Assembly: GCA_030603385.1 (NCBI GenBank)
Contig: JAUVXW010000005.1
Coordinates: 32,001-96,000, forward strand
Length of the DNA: 64,000 nucleotides
Reading direction: 5' to 3'
DNA from: Promethearchaeota archaeon
GTDB lineage: Archaea; Asgardarchaeota; Lokiarchaeia; Sigyniarchaeales; SOKP01
Shown: positions 18,773 to 30,027 of the stretch, piece after piece
How positions within the stretch are numbered: position 1 is the first letter of the stretch
Layout of the letters: each line of letters begins with the position of its first letter
Translations under genes and position numbers: made by a program
The notes under the pieces: model-generated
Database searches by the model: none
What the model was told of the DNA's origin: nothing
The model's input: only the letters and a program-made list of their open reading frames with translations

Positions 18773-19681
18773 ATGGCTACTATGAAGGTGTGTTTTATTG
18801 GAAAGCCCTCGATGGGGAAATCTACCATTAAAAAGGTTATCTTTGAAGGAGAGGATCCGAGTGAATTAGTTCTTAGCCCTCTTGAAGCAACAATTGGAAT
18901 TAAGTATTCTATACATGAATTTATGGATTCAAAAGTTAGTTTAATTGACGCTCCTGGTCAATCACTACCGATCATATTAGAGGATGAACAAAAACAGATA
19001 CTAACGTTTGGCGACACAAGCGCAATCATATATATATTCGATTATCCAACATGGATATCGGATTCTCAAGACATCATTGACGATGTTAGAAAAATCTATG
19101 AAATCAATAAAAAACATGATTTTGGCGCGAAAATTATATTATTTCTACATAAAATTGATCTTATAATTAAGAAAAAGATCGGTACTCTACTCTCCTTTAT
19201 AAGGCGGCAGATAATCAAACAATTAAATCTTCCAGAAGAAATTCCGGTTTATTTTACCAGTTTACATCCAAACTTAATATATACTACTTACAATGCAATT
19301 TCGAATACAATTAGTGATTTCTCTGAAAACACCTCATCTTTAAAGGAAAGTATCAAGAATCTTTTAAAAAATTCATCAAAAACAAGCTGTTTTGTAACTA
19401 ATCGAGACGATTACCTTGTAATTCAAGAAATATCAAATGATTTTGATGCTAACATTTTGTATTATTTATATGAGGAAGTTTATAATATTAGCAAGTCTCC
19501 TGAAATAATTTCAACAAAAAGCAATGTAGTAAGCTTGGGTCCGAAATTGTTTAATAGGGTAATAGGTAGTATAATTAACCATAATTCTAATTTTAAAAAT
19601 ATTGTACTATTTTCTGAAACTTTAGAGAAAGAGGATATGATAAAGATATTAGATGAATTAAAGAAGGATTTAAATCAATAA
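18773..19681 (+). CDS. Rag/Gtr1-like small GTPase with C-terminal roadblock-like extension
   Basis: G1 GKPSMGKSTIKKVIF, G2 EATIG, G3 DAPGQ, G4 with Rag-typical His (LHKID), G5 FTSL; about 120-aa C-terminal domain. Confidence 0.8.
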   Translation: MATMKVCFIGKPSMGKSTIKKVIFEGEDPSELVLSPLEATIGIKYSIHEFMDSKVSLIDAPGQSLPIILEDEQKQILTFGDTSAIIYIFDYPTWISDSQDIIDDVRKIYEINKKHDFGAKIILFLHKIDLIIKKKIGTLLSFIRRQIIKQLNLPEEIPVYFTSLHPNLIYTTYNAISNTISDFSENTSSLKESIKNLLKNSSKTSCFVTNRDDYLVIQEISNDFDANILYYLYEEVYNISKSPEIISTKSNVVSLGPKLFNRVIGSIINHNSNFKNIVLFSETLEKEDMIKILDELKKDLNQ

Positions 19682-19718
19682 TTTTAAACGTACATAATAG
19701 AATAACAAGATTCATAAC

Positions 19719-20768
19719 ATGCTACGCGAAATATTTATAATTTTAAATGATAAATTGATCTATCAGAGGAGTTATGCCAAAGGATTAGATACTTCTCTTT
19801 TTACAAATGTATATCAAAAAGTTAAAAAAGTAGCATTTTCTAAGTTTGGAAGCGAAACTGGAATATATGAATTTTTTGAGTATAAACTCTCATATATAGT
19901 CAATGAGAATTCTGATTTAGTTTTACTTTTTGTATCTGGATTAGGCGATGATTTTAAAGATATTGAACCCCAACTGAAAAAATTCAAAAAAGAATTCTTA
20001 GAATATTATGGTGATAGTCTCAAAAAAGATGATTTCGAAATAATAAATGAAGTTTTAGATCCAATAGTTGACAATATCCATAGAAACCTTAAACCTAAAA
20101 TTTCAATTGTTGGGTTTTCTGGAGTTGGGAAAACAACTACTACTAGATTAATAAAATCAGAGGAAATCCCAATGCAACACATTCCTACAATAACAGGTGA
20201 GGTGGCAACCATCAAGATTGGCAAACTAAACTTCTACCTTTGGGATTTCGCTGGCCAAAATCAATTCGATTTTCTATGGGAAAAGTTCATAAGAGGGAGC
20301 GATGCAGTGCTCCTAATGACCGATTCGACACTGGAGAACTTAGAAAAAAGCCGATTCTTTATTGAACTAGTTAATAAGGCGGTGCCTTATGCTCGATTTG
20401 CGGTAATTGCGAATAAACAGGATTTGCCCGAAGCGAAGGAAGTCGAGGACATAGAAAGATTAATGGGCAATAAGACATATGGATTTGTAGCAATAGATAC
20501 TAATAATCGTCCAAAAATGATACGTATAATAGCAGATTTATTAGATATGGATAGAAAAGTATCACCATTATTAAAACCCTTACTTGAGAGAGATAACCTG
20601 ATGGATGAAGCACAGAAGGCTTTGGAAGATGGAGAATTTGGAGAAGCTGCTGCACTTTTTGAAAATATCAGCAATTTGTGTCTCGAATTAGGAGATGACT
20701 CCCTTGCTATTGATTTTCAAAACAAAAGTGAGAAAATAAGTAGTATGTTAAAATCACTTACTAGTTAG
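19719..20768 (+). CDS. Longin domain-Arf-like small GTPase fusion with C-terminal helical hairpin
   Basis: Longin-like N-terminus (MLREIFIILNDKLIYQRSY...LVLLFVSG); G1 GFSGVGKT, G2 PTI, G3 WDFAGQ, G4 NKQD; TPR/MIT-like tail. Confidence 0.85.
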   Translation: MLREIFIILNDKLIYQRSYAKGLDTSLFTNVYQKVKKVAFSKFGSETGIYEFFEYKLSYIVNENSDLVLLFVSGLGDDFKDIEPQLKKFKKEFLEYYGDSLKKDDFEIINEVLDPIVDNIHRNLKPKISIVGFSGVGKTTTTRLIKSEEIPMQHIPTITGEVATIKIGKLNFYLWDFAGQNQFDFLWEKFIRGSDAVLLMTDSTLENLEKSRFFIELVNKAVPYARFAVIANKQDLPEAKEVEDIERLMGNKTYGFVAIDTNNRPKMIRIIADLLDMDRKVSPLLKPLLERDNLMDEAQKALEDGEFGEAAALFENISNLCLELGDDSLAIDFQNKSEKISSMLKSLTS

Positions 20769-20804
20769 TAAAACTCAATTTCATTATTGTCTAATTTTCT
20801 AATA

Positions 20805-22472
20805 CTAATTCTTCCAGGTTCTTGTTAAATTTTGTAAAAATACTAAGACTTCTTTATCTCCAAGTGGAATTATATTTGATTGAAAGATTATTTGATTATT
20901 GTCTATTGGTACAATGAATTTCATTTCTTTAGGTTCATTGTCATTTAGAGCTTGTTCTATTTTTTCTTGAGCCTCTTCTGCAGTTTCGAGCGGTAGAAGC
21001 TTATTTATAGGTTTTCCTATAAAGTTTTTTGTAGTAAACATTTGTTCCATTATTGCTTCAATTTTTTTATCTAATTTAATATCTAACAATATACCATTCT
21101 TTGATATTCTGAAAATCGAGAATGGAATATGTTCAAAGAGAATGTTATTCTGTATTTCACTTTGTCGTAGCTCCTCTTTATTTTGCATCCTTTCTATTGC
21201 AGTGCCTAATTCTAACCCAATTGTAATTATTAATTCCATCTCTTCAGGTAATAGCGATCTAGTATCTTTAAAGACCATGTTTAATGAACCAATAATTTCA
21301 AGCTTTGAAAATAAAGGAATTATTGCAGTAGAATTAACTTCTATTCCATCAAAAAATCTTTTAATAACTTCTGGAAAATTATCATTAATAAGTGCTACAC
21401 CTTTAGTAAACACAATATCATAAGGATCTTTGTTAATATCCAATTCACTATGCTGTAGGACAAAATAAGACGGAAAACCTTTATGTACTTTAATTCTTGC
21501 CACATTTTGAGATTTTTCTATTAAATAAATGCTACATCCCTTAAGATCAAATAAATCAATAAAACTATCTCGTATCTTCGCTAACAATTCAGATAAATTA
21601 TTCGCTTGATTAGCTATACTTATGATTCTATTCAAGATATCAGTCTTTTTAACTTGCTCCTTAAGTTTATCTTCAATCAAATGTATATCAGTTATATCAT
21701 GAAATAGATATTGAATAAAATATTGATCTGCCAGTTGTATTTCGTTTACACTAACTTCTAAATACATTTGTGTACCTGTAGATTTTTTTATTCTAGAAAT
21801 AATTGGAGGTGGTTGATCAATTAAATGTTTTACCATATTTCGATCAACTAAACCTTCATCAAACAATTCAAACTCTAATGCCTCAATGCCAATAATGTCA
21901 TCTCTTGTTTTTTCGACTAATTTTTCTCCTTCTAAATTAACATCAACTATTACTCCTGATTCCCGATTCATTATGAAAATAGCATCCCTCGCTGCTTTAA
22001 ATAGAGCCTGATATCGGTGTTCAGCCATTACTAAAGTCTTAATTGCGGGTTTAATTGATTCAAAATAAGAAAAAAAGAAGTTTTTAATTTCATGTAATTT
22101 GTTAGGATCAGCTTTAAAATCTTTGGGTTCATGATCGAAAGCCCTATATGCATCATCAAGTTTTATGATATATTGAGCACATCCGGCTAGAAGTTCATTG
22201 GCAAGCATTAAAGTTAAATTTGTACTTGATTCAGTAACTAGCGACAGTAGAAAACTCTCGTATCCACCTCTAGCAAATGGACTGAGTAGTTTGAAAAACA
22301 AATTTGCTGTTTTTAATTTTCCAAATATATGAATAAATACACCTTTAGTTGGAAGCTCCATTAGTGAAGGAATCTTACTCACAATTTCATCCTCTAATGA
22401 TTGAGGTGCTTTTAAAACTATCTTGGGTCCGTATAGAGGATCGAAACGACTTAAAATTAATGCAACTTCCAA
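20805..22472 (-). CDS. uDENN/longin-PAS-GAF-PAS protein with no kinase output
   Basis: N-terminus 'LILSRFDPLYGPKIVLKAP...FFKLLSPFARGGYESFLLSLV'; PAS 'YQALFKAARDAIFI...DVN...HDITD'; GAF 'IIPLFSKLEIIGSLNM...LGTAIER'; second PAS ending 'QNLT'. Confidence 0.8.
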   Translation of the reverse strand: MEVALILSRFDPLYGPKIVLKAPQSLEDEIVSKIPSLMELPTKGVFIHIFGKLKTANLFFKLLSPFARGGYESFLLSLVTESSTNLTLMLANELLAGCAQYIIKLDDAYRAFDHEPKDFKADPNKLHEIKNFFFSYFESIKPAIKTLVMAEHRYQALFKAARDAIFIMNRESGVIVDVNLEGEKLVEKTRDDIIGIEALEFELFDEGLVDRNMVKHLIDQPPPIISRIKKSTGTQMYLEVSVNEIQLADQYFIQYLFHDITDIHLIEDKLKEQVKKTDILNRIISIANQANNLSELLAKIRDSFIDLFDLKGCSIYLIEKSQNVARIKVHKGFPSYFVLQHSELDINKDPYDIVFTKGVALINDNFPEVIKRFFDGIEVNSTAIIPLFSKLEIIGSLNMVFKDTRSLLPEEMELIITIGLELGTAIERMQNKEELRQSEIQNNILFEHIPFSIFRISKNGILLDIKLDKKIEAIMEQMFTTKNFIGKPINKLLPLETAEEAQEKIEQALNDNEPKEMKFIVPIDNNQIIFQSNIIPLGDKEVLVFLQNLTRTWKN

Positions 22473-22705
22473 GATCTTTCACAGTTTTTAAGTTAATATT
22501 CTCGAATTCTAAGTAAAAATTGAATTATTTAAATTTATTTTTAAGCAATTATTTTTAAATTATTTTACTATTGAATATAGAACTATTATCTTAATGGCTA
22601 ATTGGGTTTTAACTTTAATCTTTAATTGCACTCTTCTTATGTAATAAGATCATTCCTTAATTATTTAAAGCAAATCTTATAAAACGATCTTTTTTTTACC
22701 TTATT

Positions 22706-23365
22706 ATGACTATGGAAGAATATTTACAACCAACAGAGTTTCTTGATTTTGACAAAAGTCGTGTATATAAAAAAGCCATAGAAATTACTAAAGAATTGAA
22801 AACCGATAAAGAAAAAGCGATCGCTCTTTTTTACTGGGTTAGGGATCAAATCAAGTATAATATGTATACATATAATCCAAGTAATAGAGCAAATCTTAAA
22901 GCTTCTGTTACATTACGCAGAAGTAATGGTTTCTGTATGTCAAAAGCCGTACTATTATCTACTTTTGCTCGAGCCGTTGGTATTCCTGCAAGAATCCACA
23001 TGATAGATATCATAAATCATAAAATTCCTAATTGGATTGAAGAATTAATGGGGACTCGGACATTTCATTGTCACGGATATAGTGAATTATATATTGATGG
23101 AATATGGAGAAAACTAACTCCTGTATTTGATAAAGATACAGCAATTAAGGCAGGCTACGTTCCGACAGTAGAATTTGATGGAGAAAAAGACGCCTTGTTA
23201 TCACATCATGATAAAGAAGGAAACCTATTCGTGGAGTATGCCGAAGATTGGGGAATTTATACTGATGTACCCTTAGAAAAAATTAGTGAGATCTTCTCAA
23301 ATAATTATGGGAAAATTTATACTAAATACAAATTTCAAAAACCAGACAAATTAGAAAATTCATAA
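22706..23365 (+). CDS. Transglutaminase-like superfamily protein
   Basis: 'FYWVRDQIKY', 'GFCMSKAVL...RAVGIPAR', 'HGYSELYIDGIW'. Confidence 0.85.
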   Translation: MTMEEYLQPTEFLDFDKSRVYKKAIEITKELKTDKEKAIALFYWVRDQIKYNMYTYNPSNRANLKASVTLRRSNGFCMSKAVLLSTFARAVGIPARIHMIDIINHKIPNWIEELMGTRTFHCHGYSELYIDGIWRKLTPVFDKDTAIKAGYVPTVEFDGEKDALLSHHDKEGNLFVEYAEDWGIYTDVPLEKISEIFSNNYGKIYTKYKFQKPDKLENS

Positions 23366-23375
23366 AATTTTGAAT

Positions 23376-24302
23376 TTAAGAAAAATAAAACTCTTTTAAA
23401 CCTAATTCTCGTAAAAATATTTTATATTTCCCTAATTTTCCTCCATAATTACCTGTTGAAATTTTAATAAGCCCCTCTAAATCAATAATTCCCTCAATTA
23501 CTTTTAACATTGTTTTTTCAATGGTTTCAATATCTAAAGCATTAAATACTATTTCTGGAATAGATAATACTCCATCAGGAACCTTAAATTCTTCCAGTGA
23601 GAGCTTGGATTTCAATGTTGGACAATATGGGTGATTTGTTGATGGTCCAATCTCAGGAAAATTTGTTTCAGGTTTAGAACCGGCGGAACATACATCAAAT
23701 GTTGTACAGACATTGTCAATTTCAGCAATTATTCTTACAGCTTCTCTTCCAACCTTTATTCCTGATTTAATTGAATCGCAATATAGCCATAAATTACCTC
23801 CCATAACTCCTGGAGCATAGGAGATTTCTTCCTCTATTATAAAATCATAACCCATCATTATGGGGACCGAAATTAGTTTTCGATTGAAATCTTCTATTAT
23901 CCATTCATATCCATCCCCGCAATGTCCTACATTATTCATCATGTTAAAACTATTTTCAATTGCTTTTGGATAATAATCGAAAACGGCAGTAGTAGGCACT
24001 ACCAGAATGCCTTGTCTCATTCTTCTTCCCAATTGATCATAAAATTTTGCAGTAGCTTTTTTGCCAGTCCCAGTTACCCACAATTGAACAATAGAACCTA
24101 ATCTACCGTCAATAGTTTCACTCTCACTAAGCCACCTTACAATTCCTCCTTCAGCATCCCCAAATACAGTTGAAGGAAGCGCCGTAAACGCGTTTACAGC
24201 CCTAGTTAAAAATTCAGCATCTTGGGCTGTTACCATTAATTGGATACATAGCCCTTCAAAAGCTTCACAATATGCATCTTCAATTATTGCCATTTTCAAC
24301 AC
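23376..24302 (-). CDS. ftr: Formylmethanofuran--tetrahydromethanopterin N-formyltransferase
   Basis: 'IEDAYCEAF', 'AEGG', 'PTTAVF', 'GDGYE', 'GGN', 'SGS/AGSK...STNHPYCPTL', 'EIV', 'GNYGGKLG'. Confidence 0.9.
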   Translation of the reverse strand: MLKMAIIEDAYCEAFEGLCIQLMVTAQDAEFLTRAVNAFTALPSTVFGDAEGGIVRWLSESETIDGRLGSIVQLWVTGTGKKATAKFYDQLGRRMRQGILVVPTTAVFDYYPKAIENSFNMMNNVGHCGDGYEWIIEDFNRKLISVPIMMGYDFIIEEEISYAPGVMGGNLWLYCDSIKSGIKVGREAVRIIAEIDNVCTTFDVCSAGSKPETNFPEIGPSTNHPYCPTLKSKLSLEEFKVPDGVLSIPEIVFNALDIETIEKTMLKVIEGIIDLEGLIKISTGNYGGKLGKYKIFLRELGLKEFYFS

Positions 24303-24422
24303 TTTATTGTTTGTTTCTTTTAAAATTTCTAGTAATATTTTTATATCTTATAAGATCCAATAAAAATTTAAAATCTATTATTAACTCTTAATTATTAACT
24401 TTAAAAACAGAGCTTAAAAAAA

Positions 24423-25346
24423 ATGCCAAAAGCTATAATTTTATACGAAATAGATCAATCATTTGGACCAAATATATTAGCAGAATATTATTTAAAACAA
24501 GATGATAAAATACCAACAAGTATATTAAGAGAATTTTCTGAAAAACATGTAAAAAAAGGTTATTCGGATGTAACTATTCGCGACGAAAACAATCGCTATT
24601 ATTCAAATATAGTTAATGCTGAGTCAATTGATAAAGAAAATCTCTATTTAGGATTTATATTACAAGAAGGAGAGGATCTTCTCTCGTTAAAAAGCATCTT
24701 TGAAAATATTGAAGGAAAAGTTGTGCAAGACTTTTCCGCTGATAAGAAGGAGATGACTGAACTTCTAAAAGATGGTTTAAATTCAATATTAAGTTTAATT
24801 CAAAAACTCCAAGAACCTAAAATTATAAAAGAAATTTTGAATGAAAGAACGAAAAAAATGCTTGATGATGGTCTTCTCCAAGAAGCAAGAGAATTGATTG
24901 ATATTGGTGAAGAAATTCCTGAAAAACTTGCAGAAGAAGTTAAAGTTGCTGAAAAATTACTAACTGCTAAAGAATATAGAAAAGCAAAAAAAAGTTTTCT
25001 TAAAGCTTCAGAGTTGGCAACACTCGTACAAGAAGAGAAAATTGCTTCTTTTTTAAAAAATAAAGGCGAACAAGTTGGTATGTTCCCTGATTTGCTAAGA
25101 GAACGTGAGAATCTTCAGAAAGAAATAGTAAAAATCACAAGTGAATTTGAGGATAATAAATTACATCTAGATGATTTATTAGTCGAACCGGTAGATAGGT
25201 TAATCGAAATTTCAAATAATTTTGAAGAAAATGAAATAATAAGGGAATTAACAAAATTAAAAAACAATATACAAAGAGTTTCTCGATTAGCAAAAGAATT
25301 AGAAGGATTAAAAAATAAGATAAAAGAAAATTTAACAAATATTTAA
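24423..25346 (+). CDS. uDENN/longin-like domain protein with helical/coiled-coil C-terminus
   Basis: 'AIILYEIDQSFGPNILAEY' longin/uDENN start; helical module resembling the tail of 19719..20768; C-terminal coiled coil. Confidence 0.6.
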   Translation: MPKAIILYEIDQSFGPNILAEYYLKQDDKIPTSILREFSEKHVKKGYSDVTIRDENNRYYSNIVNAESIDKENLYLGFILQEGEDLLSLKSIFENIEGKVVQDFSADKKEMTELLKDGLNSILSLIQKLQEPKIIKEILNERTKKMLDDGLLQEARELIDIGEEIPEKLAEEVKVAEKLLTAKEYRKAKKSFLKASELATLVQEEKIASFLKNKGEQVGMFPDLLRERENLQKEIVKITSEFEDNKLHLDDLLVEPVDRLIEISNNFEENEIIRELTKLKNNIQRVSRLAKELEGLKNKIKENLTNI

Positions 25347-25347
25347 T

Positions 25348-27165
25348 TTATTCTGATGAATCTTCATCTAGAGTAGGTTCTTCTGTTTTAGGTGGTACAT
25401 ATTCACCAATATCTTTAAAAATAATCTTAGCTATATCCCATCCTCTTTGTGTTGGATATTTTAAGGCATTTTTAATCAATTCTTCTCCAATCTCATTATT
25501 TAACTCTACCCTATGAATATCCGGATTGCCTTTTAGAATCATCTCATACTTTGCGCCTCCAGTCCCTTGGGGTACTATTAGAATTCCATAATCTATTACT
25601 TTTTCTGAAATCGCATCTTTTAAACGTTTTGCAGCGTAATACCCTGCTACTCCCGCGCTTCTATCGAAAGTTTTAATAGATGGAATTTCCAAACCCCATT
25701 TTCTACCTTCTGCTTCGATCAAAGCAGCTAAAGTTTGCGCTCTTTTACCCATCTTAAACTTAAATTCCATTTGAGTTTTATATTTCTTTCCTTTATTATC
25801 ACCCACCATATTAATACACTTTAAAGTAGCACCGGCTACAGATTGAGGATTTACATCTATAGAATATTCTTCTTCTGCCAATATGTCTTCAATTGTCTTT
25901 TTAATAACTTCTCTGGGTTTTGAAAAATCTATTGCTTCTTCTTCAACATCCGATTTAGGTCTAGCAGTTGCAACAATGTCCGCTCCTACTTCTAAAAGCT
26001 CTTCTACAGTCATCTCTTCCATAACCACTTTGTCAATAAATCTTCTGCAAAGTTTGATAGAATTCCTTGGATTTCCTTTAGTCTTTTCATAAATCATTTC
26101 AATTAATTTTTCATTCAAGGGAAATAATGGATATAAAGGAGGATTTAAATTGTTATCCTCCCAAAAACTCTCCATGGATTTGGAGAAAAATATTTTAAGG
26201 TCATTTAGACTGAAAGGTTTTAATTCTTGTTCTGGTTCCATTCTCGAGCGTAATGGGGCGTCTGCTATTTCAATAATTCTTGGCCATATTTCCTTTAACA
26301 CAGCTATAGTAATGACTAATCCTTTCACTTCATTATACAATCTCTTTAAAATTTCCAAAAACTTTCTTTCAGCAACTTCACCTAACATGCGATAGGGCGA
26401 CTCGAGTTCATCAAAATATAGAATTAGAACTTTATCTAAATTCTCCGTGATGATTTTAATAAGGGCTAAGCACACATCATCTTCCTCAACAACAGAATTT
26501 ATTCCTAATTCATTTAATTCCTCATCCTCTAAACCTTCTCCGAGGAGCCATCTTTCTGCTAAAGCCTTCTTATTTTTATCTAATTGATAAGTAACTAATG
26601 CTTTCACACAATCTGCAAAAACACCAGGAAATTCCCTAATACCAACTTGAATTACTTCATCAATTTTAGGTTTTTGAAATAATCCTTTTTTCTCACCGCC
26701 CCACTTTTTAATTAATCTTTCAGAAACAGTATCTAATAGTTCTGCACCGAGTTCCTCGATAATACAAGTATATACATGAAGTAATACTCGAATACTCGCA
26801 GGAGGACTAGGAACATAAACAATTGTCCAATCTACAGGTAAAACGCCTACTTCTATTTCTTGAACTTCTTGTGATTGTTCTAATTTCTTTTTGTTCTCTC
26901 TTTCCTTAACCTTAAATGAGTGGTATGCGTGGGTTTTACCTGAACCCGCGCTTCCCAACAAGGGAATTAATCGGCTACTTCTGTCCCTAGAAGTTTGTTG
27001 TACGAGTCTAAAGACTTCTCGATCTATATAACTCCTTGGCCTAGCAATGTCAACTCTATCTGGGATGTCACCACGACTCACAAAGTTCGAAAAGGGCATA
27101 ATTGGAGCTTCACGTAAAACATCCAAATACATTGCCTTGTCATCGTCACTTAATTCACTATACAT
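25348..27165 (-). CDS. P-loop AAA-type ATPase (BrxD/DUF2791-like) with C-terminal alpha/beta domain
   Basis: Walker A GSAGSGKT, Walker B LYFDELE, 'AERWLLGE', 'LRSR', 'GNPR'. Confidence 0.7.
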   Translation of the reverse strand: MYSELSDDDKAMYLDVLREAPIMPFSNFVSRGDIPDRVDIARPRSYIDREVFRLVQQTSRDRSSRLIPLLGSAGSGKTHAYHSFKVKERENKKKLEQSQEVQEIEVGVLPVDWTIVYVPSPPASIRVLLHVYTCIIEELGAELLDTVSERLIKKWGGEKKGLFQKPKIDEVIQVGIREFPGVFADCVKALVTYQLDKNKKALAERWLLGEGLEDEELNELGINSVVEEDDVCLALIKIITENLDKVLILYFDELESPYRMLGEVAERKFLEILKRLYNEVKGLVITIAVLKEIWPRIIEIADAPLRSRMEPEQELKPFSLNDLKIFFSKSMESFWEDNNLNPPLYPLFPLNEKLIEMIYEKTKGNPRNSIKLCRRFIDKVVMEEMTVEELLEVGADIVATARPKSDVEEEAIDFSKPREVIKKTIEDILAEEEYSIDVNPQSVAGATLKCINMVGDNKGKKYKTQMEFKFKMGKRAQTLAALIEAEGRKWGLEIPSIKTFDRSAGVAGYYAAKRLKDAISEKVIDYGILIVPQGTGGAKYEMILKGNPDIHRVELNNEIGEELIKNALKYPTQRGWDIAKIIFKDIGEYVPPKTEEPTLDEDSSE

Positions 27166-27416
27166 AAGATTTCATTCCATTAATTTTAATAATATTCCTT
27201 TACTTTCCAATAACTTTACTTTTATTTGGAATATTATATAAGCGTTTACGATATTTGGAAAAACATTTTCTAATATAGATAAAAAATTTTTTTCCTAACA
27301 TTTAAGCTATTATGTATTTATATCTAAATAGACAAATAAAAATTTAAGGTGAAATTTATATCCATGTATTTATATCTTACATTCGCAGAAAAATATTGTT
27401 AACGAGATGATTTTTT

Positions 27417-28085
27417 ATGCCTAAAAAAGATAAATATGATGATGAGGAGGATGAAGATGAGGAACAAGATCCTTTTGAATTTTCCAAATTTTTTGGTGAT
27501 CCAAGTAAATTCTTTTCAGATCCTAACAAGTTTCTCATAGATCCTAATAAAATCTTTGGCTCAAAACAATTTAGACAGCTTTTTAATGATCTATTCGAAA
27601 AAATTTCAAAAAATTTACCACCTGAGTTTCAAAATCTTTCCCCGGAAGATCTTATGAGAGAATTCAGAAAAAATAAGTCTAAATTCGGTTTAAACTCTCC
27701 AATAATGTATGGTTTTAATATTAATATAGGCCCTGATGGTAAACCTACAATAGATTCATTTGGTAATATTAGACCTAAACCAACTTCAGGAGAACCGGTT
27801 GTCAAATCAAAGAGAGAGCCATTAGTCGAAGTTAGTGAAGAAAAAGACCAATTAATTGTGATAGCAGAAATGCCTGGAGTGGATCGCGATGATATCGAAC
27901 TTGAAGCAACAAATGATAGCTTAATTATTTCCACTAAAGAAAAAGCAAGAATGCATTATTATAAAAAAATTAAATTAACTTCAGCCGTAAATTCAGATGT
28001 TGCAAAAGCTCGTTATACCAATGGAATTCTTGAAGTCCGATTGAAAAAAATTGATGAAAAGCGTACAAACATCCAGATTGATTAA
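27417..28085 (+). CDS. hsp20: Archaeal small heat-shock protein Hsp20
   Basis: 'YGFNINIGPDGKPTIDSFGN', 'EPLVEV', 'AEMPGV', 'ARYTNGILEV', C-terminal IxI motif. Confidence 0.92.
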   Translation: MPKKDKYDDEEDEDEEQDPFEFSKFFGDPSKFFSDPNKFLIDPNKIFGSKQFRQLFNDLFEKISKNLPPEFQNLSPEDLMREFRKNKSKFGLNSPIMYGFNINIGPDGKPTIDSFGNIRPKPTSGEPVVKSKREPLVEVSEEKDQLIVIAEMPGVDRDDIELEATNDSLIISTKEKARMHYYKKIKLTSAVNSDVAKARYTNGILEVRLKKIDEKRTNIQID

Positions 28086-28180: not shown

Positions 28181-30027
28181 ATTGAGTAAATTTTAACTTT
28201 TAATCTTTTTATTTTTTTCTATTTCTTTACTTGGTTATTCGAGTTAAGAAGGTAATCTATAAAGATTTTTAATTCGTCGGCGTAAAACATCCAAGGAATT
28301 CAAGTAAAGATATCCTGATTTTCGTGCTTTATAAGGGAGCATCTGTCTAAAATTGAAATACCGAGAGGATTCGAAGGCAGAAGGCTTCATTATTAAGTCA
28401 GGACGTCCTAATTTGTATGCTGTCAACGTTTTTAACAGTTCTAATATATAAATTGTGCAACGAAGTTTTACCGCCGCGTCCATTCCTCTTGTATTCATTC
28501 GAAAGGCATTGTAGTATGTATTATTATATGAATTTCCTTGCTCAATCATCGGACGAAAGCCGTAGATCTTGAGAAAATAGTCATCCGACCATTCTTTTGG
28601 GATGAAATCCGTATTAAAAAAAAATCCTTTTTTTAACTCCCTTATAGGATGGGTTTTCAGATTCTTCCGTGCTCGAATAATCGGTACTAGACCTTTAGCT
28701 CGGATATTCTCCATGTTTTGCAGAGAATAGGGGCCTGAATCTGCTATGAGCACTTTCCATTCATATTTTGTTAGCTTAAAAAACTCTTCTATTGTTTCTC
28801 TAAACGCGAGGATATCGTTTCGATTTCCAGCAAACATCTTGAAATAAATGGGAAACCAGCGATTAAAACAATGAGCATATAATATTCCAGGATCATATCC
28901 TACCCCCTTTTTTATGCCGTTATGTCGGCAATATCCCGCTTCAAGATCGGAATAATTTGAATGTCCTTTCTCTTTGTTATTGTTACAATTTGACCGTATG
29001 AATTGACCATCCCAAATTAGGATTCTTGGAACGATAATACCACAATCAACGCATTCTTTCGCCAACAGCTGAAAAAACTCAAACAACGCATCCGCAGGGA
29101 TTTTCGTGAGAACATAACTGATATCGTGTGCATCGGGAAAAAAGTCAGGGTCGTGGGTGATACTAATTAAAGGTGGATCAGTTATAAACCTGCCCATTCT
29201 CTGAATTCCGGCGTAATTCTTAAAGCCTAAGTTAATCCGCAACATTTCATACGCGAACACATCTTCAATAAACATATCCTTAAATGACACGCCACGATTC
29301 TCAAGAATTCCTTGCAGGTCTTGGAAAAAGCTTAAATCATTAAATTCAAATAGGTTTTCAAAGAATCCATTAAAACCCTTAAGATATCGATGCATTTCCC
29401 ATTCCATTTTAGAGATCACTCCCAATCCAAATTCTTTAAAACGAGGGATCTTTACGCGAGAGAACCGATATAAGTATTTATCTTTTAGTTTAGGCACCCA
29501 ATCTATGAAGTCCTGTATCTTTTTCTGGAATTTGGACAAGATTCTCGTAGTAGATGATGCCCTCTTCCCCCATGTGGGATGTATTGGAATCCAACGAAAT
29601 TTTTTTCGAGCAATTCTATAATCTCTTGGGACACTCATATCATAAGTTTCGATAGATTTTAATCCAATGAAATCTGTCAATTGTGTTTGATAAATACTGG
29701 GCTTAATTCTATATAAGATTATTATCATGATGAACACTTTTTAAGATCTATAATAAACTATTAGGTAATCGCCTATTTATTCTTTTTGGTTAAGATTTAA
29801 ATCTATAATTAATCGAATACAGATCTCCTCTTTTATTTAAATTCTAATGCAAATAGAAATCCAGAGAATTTAATCTTGATGCTTAAATTTTGCGCTCGCT
29901 TTACGTGTAATGGATGTCTCAAATCGCACGACATAAATCTAATAGGTATAGAACTATTATAAAGGAAGCAATTAATATAAGAATAAGTAAAAAAAGTAAA
30001 AAATTTAGAGTTTAAAATTTACTCAAT
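28181..30027 (-). mobile_element. Insertion sequence (1847 bp) with 16-bp terminal inverted repeats and apparent 3-bp TTA target duplication
   Basis: ATTGAGTAAATTTTAA at 28181-28196 and its reverse complement at 30012-30027; TTA at 28178-28180 and 30028-30030; single transposase; higher GC than flanks. Confidence 0.8.
28244..29737 (-). CDS. DDE transposase (IS4/IS5 superfamily)
   Basis: 'IWDGQFI', 'IADSG', 'YGFRPMIEQGN' (YRE-type motif); likely start is ATG at 29638 (MSVPRDY). Confidence 0.85.
   Translation of the reverse strand: MFIMIIILYRIKPSIYQTQLTDFIGLKSIETYDMSVPRDYRIARKKFRWIPIHPTWGKRASSTTRILSKFQKKIQDFIDWVPKLKDKYLYRFSRVKIPRFKEFGLGVISKMEWEMHRYLKGFNGFFENLFEFNDLSFFQDLQGILENRGVSFKDMFIEDVFAYEMLRINLGFKNYAGIQRMGRFITDPPLISITHDPDFFPDAHDISYVLTKIPADALFEFFQLLAKECVDCGIIVPRILIWDGQFIRSNCNNNKEKGHSNYSDLEAGYCRHNGIKKGVGYDPGILYAHCFNRWFPIYFKMFAGNRNDILAFRETIEEFFKLTKYEWKVLIADSGPYSLQNMENIRAKGLVPIIRARKNLKTHPIRELKKGFFFNTDFIPKEWSDDYFLKIYGFRPMIEQGNSYNNTYYNAFRMNTRGMDAAVKLRCTIYILELLKTLTAYKLGRPDLIMKPSAFESSRYFNFRQMLPYKARKSGYLYLNSLDVLRRRIKNLYRLPS

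Follow-up and report, generated by a model that had tools for sequence, protein, structure and literature searches.

A sensor-fused longin encoded beside Rag-like and Arf-like GTPases in a Lokiarchaeial genome: a candidate ligand-gated GTPase regulator

Eukaryotic Rag and Arf GTPases are switched off by longin-containing GTPase-activating protein (GAP) complexes (GATOR1, FLCN-FNIP and C9orf72-SMCR8), which control lysosomal nutrient signalling. Which GTPases are the clients of Asgard longins carrying the glycine-proline (GP) motif is a question left open in the accessible text of PMC12290439. It arises in concrete form at a locus of a Promethearchaeota archaeon (assembly GCA_030603385.1), where a longin fused to PAS and GAF sensor domains (P0003) is encoded beside a Rag-like GTPase (P0001) and an Arf-like GTPase with a longin-like N-terminal domain (P0002, LngArf). 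The locus lies in a window of 64,000 nucleotides, contig JAUVXW010000005.1 positions 32,001 to 96,000 (C10:32001-96000 in our numbering), and the source genome examined comprises 3.9 Mb in 58 contigs. Close protein homologues of the window genes are annotated as Promethearchaeota, that is, Lokiarchaeia. Is P0003 a regulator of the GTPases encoded next to it? We consider it quite possible, although we stop a little short of calling it probable, that P0003 is a ligand-gated regulator whose FLCN/NPRL2-type longin works in trans on one of the GTPases encoded next to it. Its most plausible role would be that of an arginine-finger GAP with the Arf-like P0002 as target, P0001 being a co-expressed partner. 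The relevant features, in coordinates of the window, are listed below.

18773..19681, + strand: P0001, 302 amino acids (aa); Gtr1/RagA-type GTPase with a C-terminal extension where the Rag roadblock domain sits
19682..19718, + strand: spacer between P0001 and P0002, 37 nt, read from the sequence
19719..20768, + strand: P0002, 349 aa; 118-aa N-terminal domain, Arf-like GTPase at about residues 120-290, helical tail
20805..22472, - strand: P0003, 555 aa; N-terminal longin, then PAS-GAF-PAS
22023..22472, - strand: P0003 longin, residues 1-150; FLCN/NPRL2/SMCR8-type by AlphaFold2 (AF2), Foldseek, VIA-align and Atlas comparisons
22425..22430, - strand: P0003 codons G15-P16 (GP motif, start of strand beta-2), from the family alignment and orthologues
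22269..22271, - strand: P0003 codon R68 (candidate arginine finger, 'ARG' motif, beta-4/beta-5 loop), from conservation
20808..22022, - strand: P0003 sensor region, residues 151-555, PAS-GAF-PAS (Pfam, TIGR00229)
24423..25346, + strand: P0004 (Lng2), 307 aa; generic longin at residues 1-130 (GP, no arginine) and a helical half
22706-23365: transglutaminase-like gene adjoining P0003

The original prediction, made from the sequence alone, placed four open reading frames here and joined them into one sensor-gated GTPase module. All four were found exactly at the coordinates given, and the spacer between P0001 and P0002 is exactly 37 nt, as had been read. Such a short gap suggests that the two GTPase genes are probably co-transcribed. 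P0003 faces P0002 tail-to-tail across a gap of 36 nt.

P0003 is indeed the convergent longin-PAS-GAF-PAS protein that had been proposed. Pfam assigns its sensor region to PAS (residues 153-262), GAF (291-428) and PAS (479-550), with E=1e-9 for both PAS_9 and PAS, E=1e-7 for GAF_3 and E=2e-4 for PAS_4; TIGR00229 matches with E=5e-12. There is no kinase or other output domain, and the longin is the only domain besides PAS-GAF-PAS. Residues 1-150 are modelled by AF2 as a longin fold with a mean confidence (predicted local distance difference test, pLDDT) of 93.2 and the topology strand-strand-helix-strand-strand-strand-helix-helix, the elements being strands 4-11 and 15-22, helix 28-39, strands 45-50, 53-63 and 71-81, and helices 88-104 and 123-149.

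Comparisons of this model with known structures point to the longins of GAP complexes. Foldseek ranks 1-10 are occupied by GATOR1, SEA and FLCN complexes, with NPRL2, Npr2 and FLCN-complex chains first, and the exhaustive VIA-align search gave Z 12.5 for NPRL2, 12.0 for FLCN and 11.2 for Npr2, compared to 8-10 for SNARE, adaptor (AP) and TRAPP longins. The margin is modest, as the solved Lokiarchaeial longin 8yqg (Z 12.2) ties with the GAP longins. Among 1.8 billion representative proteins, a database search with the P0003 longin recovered 181 clusters with the domain; in the ESM Atlas its only eukaryotic neighbours are NPRL2 and SMCR8 clusters, the latter with a template-modelling score (TM) of 0.75.

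The family alignment of 77 longin sequences shows ten positions conserved in at least 90% of members (L7, F10, G15, P16, F46, N57, F60, R68, G69 and S77), and these include both elements expected of a catalytic longin of this kind. G15-P16 opens strand beta-2 in the AF2 model and is kept in 16 of 16 orthologues as well. R68 lies in the beta-4/beta-5 loop; together with G69 it is also invariant in a second alignment (A6) and in all 16 orthologues. In the same orthologues the motifs RFDPxxGP and [F/Y]ARG are kept without exception. According to the accessible text of PMC12290439, a GP motif at the start of beta-2 is present in FLCN, NPRL2, SMCR8 and C9orf72 and absent from FNIP2, NPRL3 and non-GAP longins, and Asgard longins with the same GP-plus-arginine arrangement occur (Traffic 2025, PMC12290439). 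The structure matches, the GP motif and the conserved arginine thus bear out the assignment of P0003 to an FLCN/SMCR8-type longin.

Both GTPases look active, as judged from the P-loop, DxxGQ and N/HKxD motifs that they keep. P0001 matches Pfam Gtr1_RagA over residues 5-238 with E=7e-23 and 81.6 bits (cutoff 22), its best solved relatives in the Protein Data Bank (PDB) are Gtr1 and RagA (E 1e-9 to 1e-7, residues 4-248), and it carries a GKPSMGKS P-loop, DAPGQ and the Rag-typical G4 motif HKID. The match well above the cutoff and the HKID motif substantiate its earlier identification as a Rag/Gtr-type GTPase, and it is the only GTPase of the Gtr1/RagA kind in the genome. In 2025-2026 the PDB released crystal structures of the Lokiarchaeial Rag-like GTPases LokiRagO and LokiRagM and of a Roadblock-Longin protein (entries 8yqg, 8yl2 and 9m28).

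In P0002, Pfam finds Arf at residues 123-253 (E=4e-18, 65.8 bits, cutoff 22.3), the top PDB match is Arf1 (E=4e-16), and the motifs are GFSGVGKT, an interswitch-type WDFAGQ and NKQD. The G domain begins at about residue 120, and in place of the N-terminal amphipathic helix of Arf proteins, which P0002 lacks, residues 1-118 form a separate domain. This domain is a putative longin without the GP motif and arginine: it matches AP-2 sigma weakly (E=0.1) and in register, and the N-termini of Atlas Arf-family clusters of 341-347 aa fit the P0003 longin model with TM 0.77, the identity of those clusters with P0002 not being established. A profile comparison with the GP/Arg longin family and an Atlas feature search with the N-domain gave no match. 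Of the 'longin-Arf-like GTPase' originally described, the Arf part is therefore well founded (Pfam, Arf1), and the longin part is weakly suggested by the AP-2 sigma and Atlas matches. The LngArf family is universal in the class. Many of its members are 615-690 aa long, the 345-aa longin-like plus Arf unit being followed by a C-terminal extension of about 300 aa (L070, L072-L074, L076-L081, L086, L087). In genus g14 a LngArf gene forms part of a one-strand operon of three GTPases (L069:6438-9016 and L071:6378-9035) in the order Rag-like (308-310 aa), LngArf (349-351 aa) and small GTPase (176-184 aa), which implies that the Rag-LngArf pair is older than its link to P0003. The origin of P0002 by fission of a longin-Arf-PAS fusion was considered and rejected, since the G domains found in such fusions resemble that of P0002 no more closely than other GTPases of the genome do.

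The relationship between longins of the P0003 family and small GTPases extends beyond this locus. The source genome has about 83 GTPase open reading frames, and 2 of 7 family longins have one of them at a distance of no more than 100 bp, compared with a background of 1.9% (p = 0.007 by the binomial test). One such unit, on contig C22, consists of a 366-aa longin protein followed after 77 bp and on the same strand by a 199-aa Arf/Ras-like GTPase, amid unrelated metabolic genes. This C22 unit (L109:4950-6723) and a counterpart on C14 (L110:4748-8331) represent a second, paralogous kind of pair in the genome, with GP/Arg longins of 366/369 aa next to Arf/Ras-like GTPases of 197/199 aa; the C-terminal 220 residues of these longin proteins contain no Pfam domain.

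Database-wide, a GTPase domain directly follows the longin in 45 of 150 representative clusters (30%). Among 40 distant loci sampled across the class, 11 encode a fused longin-GTPase and several others have an adjacent GTPase gene; separate GTPase genes within 350 bp of a family longin occur at L035, L041/L044 and L056. The fused GTPase domains score best as Arf. Signalling domains are likewise frequent, with PAS in 24 and HATPase_c in 12 of 31 long family members. Three single-chain proteins combine nearly all the parts found at our locus: L030 (1119 aa) contains longin, Arf, two PAS, GAF and HATPase_c; L031 (967 aa) contains longin, Arf, two PAS and a kinase ATPase and adjoins a Gtr1/RagA-type GTPase gene; and L032 (844 aa) contains longin, Arf and three PAS and is followed by two Gtr1/RagA-type genes. 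Their longins are among the closest relatives of P0003 outside its orthologue group (37-46% identity). In a quick tree, the root of which is arbitrary, a sensor-only clade with P0003 falls beside and within the longin-GTPase(-PAS) proteins, with support of 80-89 at the key forks by the Shimodaira-Hasegawa-like approximate likelihood ratio test (SH-aLRT). This topology is consistent with a loss of the cis GTPase domain in the P0003 clade.

At the level of the locus itself, a full-length P0003 orthologue is present in about 17 of 24 genomes of the genus, and the Rag, LngArf and PAS-GAF genes are adjacent in all 16 loci examined within it. The trio stays intact while its flanks rearrange, with FAD-oxidase/CCG genes, ftr and transglutaminase copies coming and going. 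Rag or LngArf occurs in tandem duplicates beside P0003, and at L026 the Rag and LngArf pair is duplicated as a unit. The surrounding backbone, comprising FAD-oxidase and CCG genes followed further on by transglutaminase, ftr, Lng2, ATPase and HSP20 genes, is family-wide, and the same backbone without the trio is found in two genomes of the same genus, G012 (L103) and G074 (L104). Genomes without a P0003 orthologue also lack the P0002 orthologue of 69-76% identity. Within one genus, a conserved backbone thus carries either the whole trio or none of it.

Two side observations concern the surroundings. The transglutaminase-like gene is found in 2-3 tandem copies at L016, L019, L022, L028, L095 and L104. 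Just past the HSP20 gene, the window contains a DDE transposase of 497 aa (28244-29737; Pfam DDE_Tnp_1, E=3e-8), which none of the other genomes examined has at its syntenic locus.

How might P0003 work? The patterns above lead us to propose that it is a soluble, kinase-less sensor in which PAS-GAF-PAS would bind a small-molecule or redox cue and thereby control the N-terminal longin. We infer that the longin would dock on a GTP-bound neighbouring small GTPase, the likeliest target being the Arf-like P0002, perhaps joined to P0001 as a Rag-like pair, and that insertion of R68 beside the GP motif would accelerate GTP hydrolysis. The two GTPases may dimerise through the C-terminal roadblock-like region of P0001 and the N-terminal longin-like domain of P0002. 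A more elaborate version, in which the trio is a minimal archaeal counterpart of Rag/GATOR-FLCN logic, with ligand-binding PAS-GAF-PAS gating an arginine-finger longin GAP on a Rag-like/longin-Arf heterodimer, strikes us as somewhat doubtful. Complex prediction with full-length P0001 and P0002 and with residues 1-150 of P0003 scored, an alignment being supplied for each chain, gave no answer (ipSAE 0.00, controls not run) and carries no weight for or against binding.

Several observations weigh against the proposed role of P0003 as a GAP for its neighbours. FLCN, NPRL2 and SMCR8 work as heterodimers with a second longin, and P0003 is without an established partner. Its longin (residues 1-150) matches no Pfam family at all, Folliculin (PF11704) and NPR2 (PF06218) included, with Folliculin touched by just 1 of 77 family members (E=0.0028); the family profile retrieved no FLCN or NPRL2 chain from the PDB, only chance helical matches, and a phmmer search of the PDB with the P0003 longin alone returned nothing. 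P0003 also lacks a C-terminal DENN or NPRL2 C-domain, its last 400 residues being PAS-GAF-PAS, and the longin is therefore better described as akin to the eukaryotic families than as a full member of them. R68 is a candidate arginine finger on the strength of its conservation and position; as such it would have to lie beside the GP motif and reach the nucleotide. As P0003 converges on the GTPase operon, it lies outside that transcript and is not co-transcribed with P0001 and P0002.

The comparative record is also limited in ways that count against the proposal. The three genes are neighbours in a single genus only, and there everything between the CAAX protease gene and HSP20 is collinear, so that adjacency alone says little; the synteny that the original prediction looked for across Lokiarchaeia thus holds in all 16 loci of that genus and goes no further. 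The block behaviour of the trio probably reflects a single gain or loss event and therefore has small statistical weight. In genus g16 the PAS-GAF longin (L029, 425 aa, 49% identical) keeps the transglutaminase, Ftr and HSP20 genes and has no GTPase within 8 kb, and no GP/Arg longin is found near the Rag-LngArf operon of genus g14. The G domain of P0002 shows no special relationship to the GTPase domains that are fused to longins. LngArf genes are present throughout the class and each genome has several paralogues, so that neighbours by chance are not uncommon.

Some of these points would also fit another account, in which P0003 has no functional link to the adjacent GTPases, the adjacency being a product of insertion history in a genome rich in GTPases and longins, and the true target of P0003 is some other GTPase or is not a GTPase. 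The abundance of GTPase-like open reading frames (about 83) and of family longins (8) in the genome, the g16 orthologue without a GTPase neighbour and the convergent orientation agree with such an account, as does the report by Tran et al. that GTPase genes of MK-D1 do not, as a rule, share operons with longin or roadblock genes and that gene order rarely helps in pairing them. It is harder to reconcile with the roughly 10-fold enrichment of adjacency within 100 bp in the source genome, with the gain or loss of the trio as a block, with the recurrence of longin, Arf and PAS/GAF beside Rag in other genera, and with tandem duplications that hold Rag and LngArf together beside P0003. We regard the absence of any link as unlikely. 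A link of another kind is also conceivable: the P0003 longin could be a non-catalytic platform, exchange factor or effector module that scaffolds, localises or exchanges nucleotide, either by binding a GTPase or by pairing with the longin-like domain of P0002 or the roadblock-like region of P0001, with the arginine having a structural or binding role. Longin and roadblock dimers mostly serve as exchange factors or platforms, and only exceptionally as GAPs (PMC10933270). Generic longins and roadblocks match the model well too (Z 8-10), and the family is also fused in cis to GTPases, where a permanently attached GAP would be odd unless regulated. Against this stand the restriction of the GP motif to longins of GAP complexes, at least in the accessible text of PMC12290439, the conservation of both GP and arginine in at least 90% of the family, and the fact that the top structural matches are catalytic subunits; on balance we find a non-catalytic role somewhat unlikely.

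The fourth gene of the original prediction, P0004, offers a possible answer to the missing partner. It could be the arginine-less longin, comparable to FNIP, NPRL3 or C9orf72, that forms the GAP as a heterodimer with P0003. The claim of a second longin holds for residues 1-130, which are predicted to adopt a longin fold (pLDDT about 83) of a generic type, and its strand beta-2 opens with an invariant D-x-S-F-G-P, whereas P0004 has neither the arginine nor the ARG motif; FGP without arginine recalls C9orf72, which has GP without the finger. Its structure, with no Pfam family match, is nearer to the VAMP7 longin (Z 12.2) than to NPRL3 (9.3) or FNIP2 (8.8), and the Atlas feature search gave weak leads only (0.83, with NPR2 assigned to 19% of the proteins in one cluster). 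Two apparent links to the GP/Arg family, a hidden Markov model match and a probability of 96.6% in hhalign, were discarded as circular, P0004 being a row in the profile; both were gone when it was removed, and the non-circular comparison aligns 17 residues with E=0.012. The genomic context is also unfavourable to a partnership. Pfam agrees with the earlier observation that two genes, one transglutaminase-like and the other ftr, lie between the trio and P0004. P0004 is single-copy, occurs in 47 of 49 genomes of the host's taxonomic family, including those without P0003, and always adjoins genes for a 605-aa P-loop ATPase and HSP20, whether or not the trio is present. This older Lng2-ATPase-HSP20 block (window 24423-28085) is kept across the whole host family, with 62-94% identity for the ATPase, which weakly matches BrxC/BrxD (E=4e-4). 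The closeness of P0004 to the trio is therefore incidental. The suggestion that P0004 serves as the non-catalytic partner finds no support in this independent context or in the non-circular family comparison; P0004 is probably outside the GTPase module, and the heterodimer with P0003 is in our view very improbable. In favour of the heterodimer, distant P0004 homologues of 308-314 aa (25-31% identity) from two further families of the class (L105:6830-8313, L106:6518-8005) overlap or abut a gene for a small GTPase of 180-185 aa on the same strand, in tight operons. P0004 may also regulate GTPases independently, with longins of its type having their own GTPase partners.

What is left of the proposed sensor-GAP-GTPase module is thus a trio. 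Its FLCN/NPRL2/SMCR8-type longin and the comparative link of that longin family to small GTPases (Arf with PAS/GAF and Rag) stand, and P0004 is probably not part of it. The statement that such an arrangement had not been described was too strong: judging from the accessible text of Liu et al. (bioRxiv 10.1101/2020.10.19.343400, later Nature 2021), many fusions of NPRL2-like longins to two-component-type signalling domains have been published, as have Rag-family GTPases fused to longins. The type of protein represented by P0003 is accordingly not new. The trio itself is not described in the Asgard Arf paper or in what a further literature search returned, and the pairing of a sensor-longin with specific GTPase genes is not described in the accessible parts of Liu et al. 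or PMC12290439. What our analysis adds is a concrete and testable pairing, and the recurrence of longin, Arf, PAS/GAF and Rag together.

The trio and the single-chain longin-Arf-PAS proteins beside Rag-type genes supply concrete protein pairs for a GTPase assay, and the locus suggests that the input is a ligand of PAS/GAF. If P0003 does regulate its neighbours as proposed, the regulation of a pre-eukaryotic version of the longin-GAP switch would be revealed. On the more elaborate reading given above, the long-sought GTPase clients of Asgard GP-motif longins would be identified, and the coupling of small-molecule sensing to longin GAPs that control Rag/Arf-type switches would predate eukaryotes.

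Among known systems, the nearest by protein type are the Asgard NPRL2-like and FLCN-SMCR8-type longins which, in the accessible texts of Liu et al. and PMC12290439, share with P0003 the longin type, the GP motif plus arginine and the fusion to PAS-type sensors; P0003 is a kinase-less PAS-GAF-PAS variant of these signalling-fused longins. The best structural matches come from GATOR1, where NPRL2-NPRL3 is the GAP for RagA/B, and from FLCN-FNIP2, the GAP for RagC/D. The GP motif and arginine are alike, and here too a RagA/Gtr1-type GTPase is encoded in the locus. P0003 differs from both in having PAS/GAF in place of DENN or the NPRL2 C-domain, in the lack of a sequence-profile match, and in a setting with no established second longin subunit and no DEPDC5, Ragulator or TOR context. 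C9orf72-SMCR8, an Arf GAP, resembles our locus in the pairing of a GP/Arg longin with the Arf family, as the gene immediately adjacent to P0003 is Arf-like; unlike that complex, P0003 is associated with neither DENN domains nor WDR41, and the N-terminal domain of P0002 replaces the amphipathic helix. The bacterial MglB-MglA pair sets a precedent among prokaryotes, in that the gene of a regulator with a roadblock/longin fold adjoins that of its GTPase. MglB is, however, a roadblock homodimer without such an arginine finger or sensor domains, and it ranks far below the GAP longins as a structural match to P0003 (Foldseek rank 46). The closest likeness in composition is to the single-chain proteins L030, L031 and L032 of related Lokiarchaeial genera, which are made of the same parts and, for L031 and L032, have Rag-type genes adjacent. 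They carry the GTPase in cis and often a kinase ATPase, whereas the locus in the window distributes the parts among three genes.

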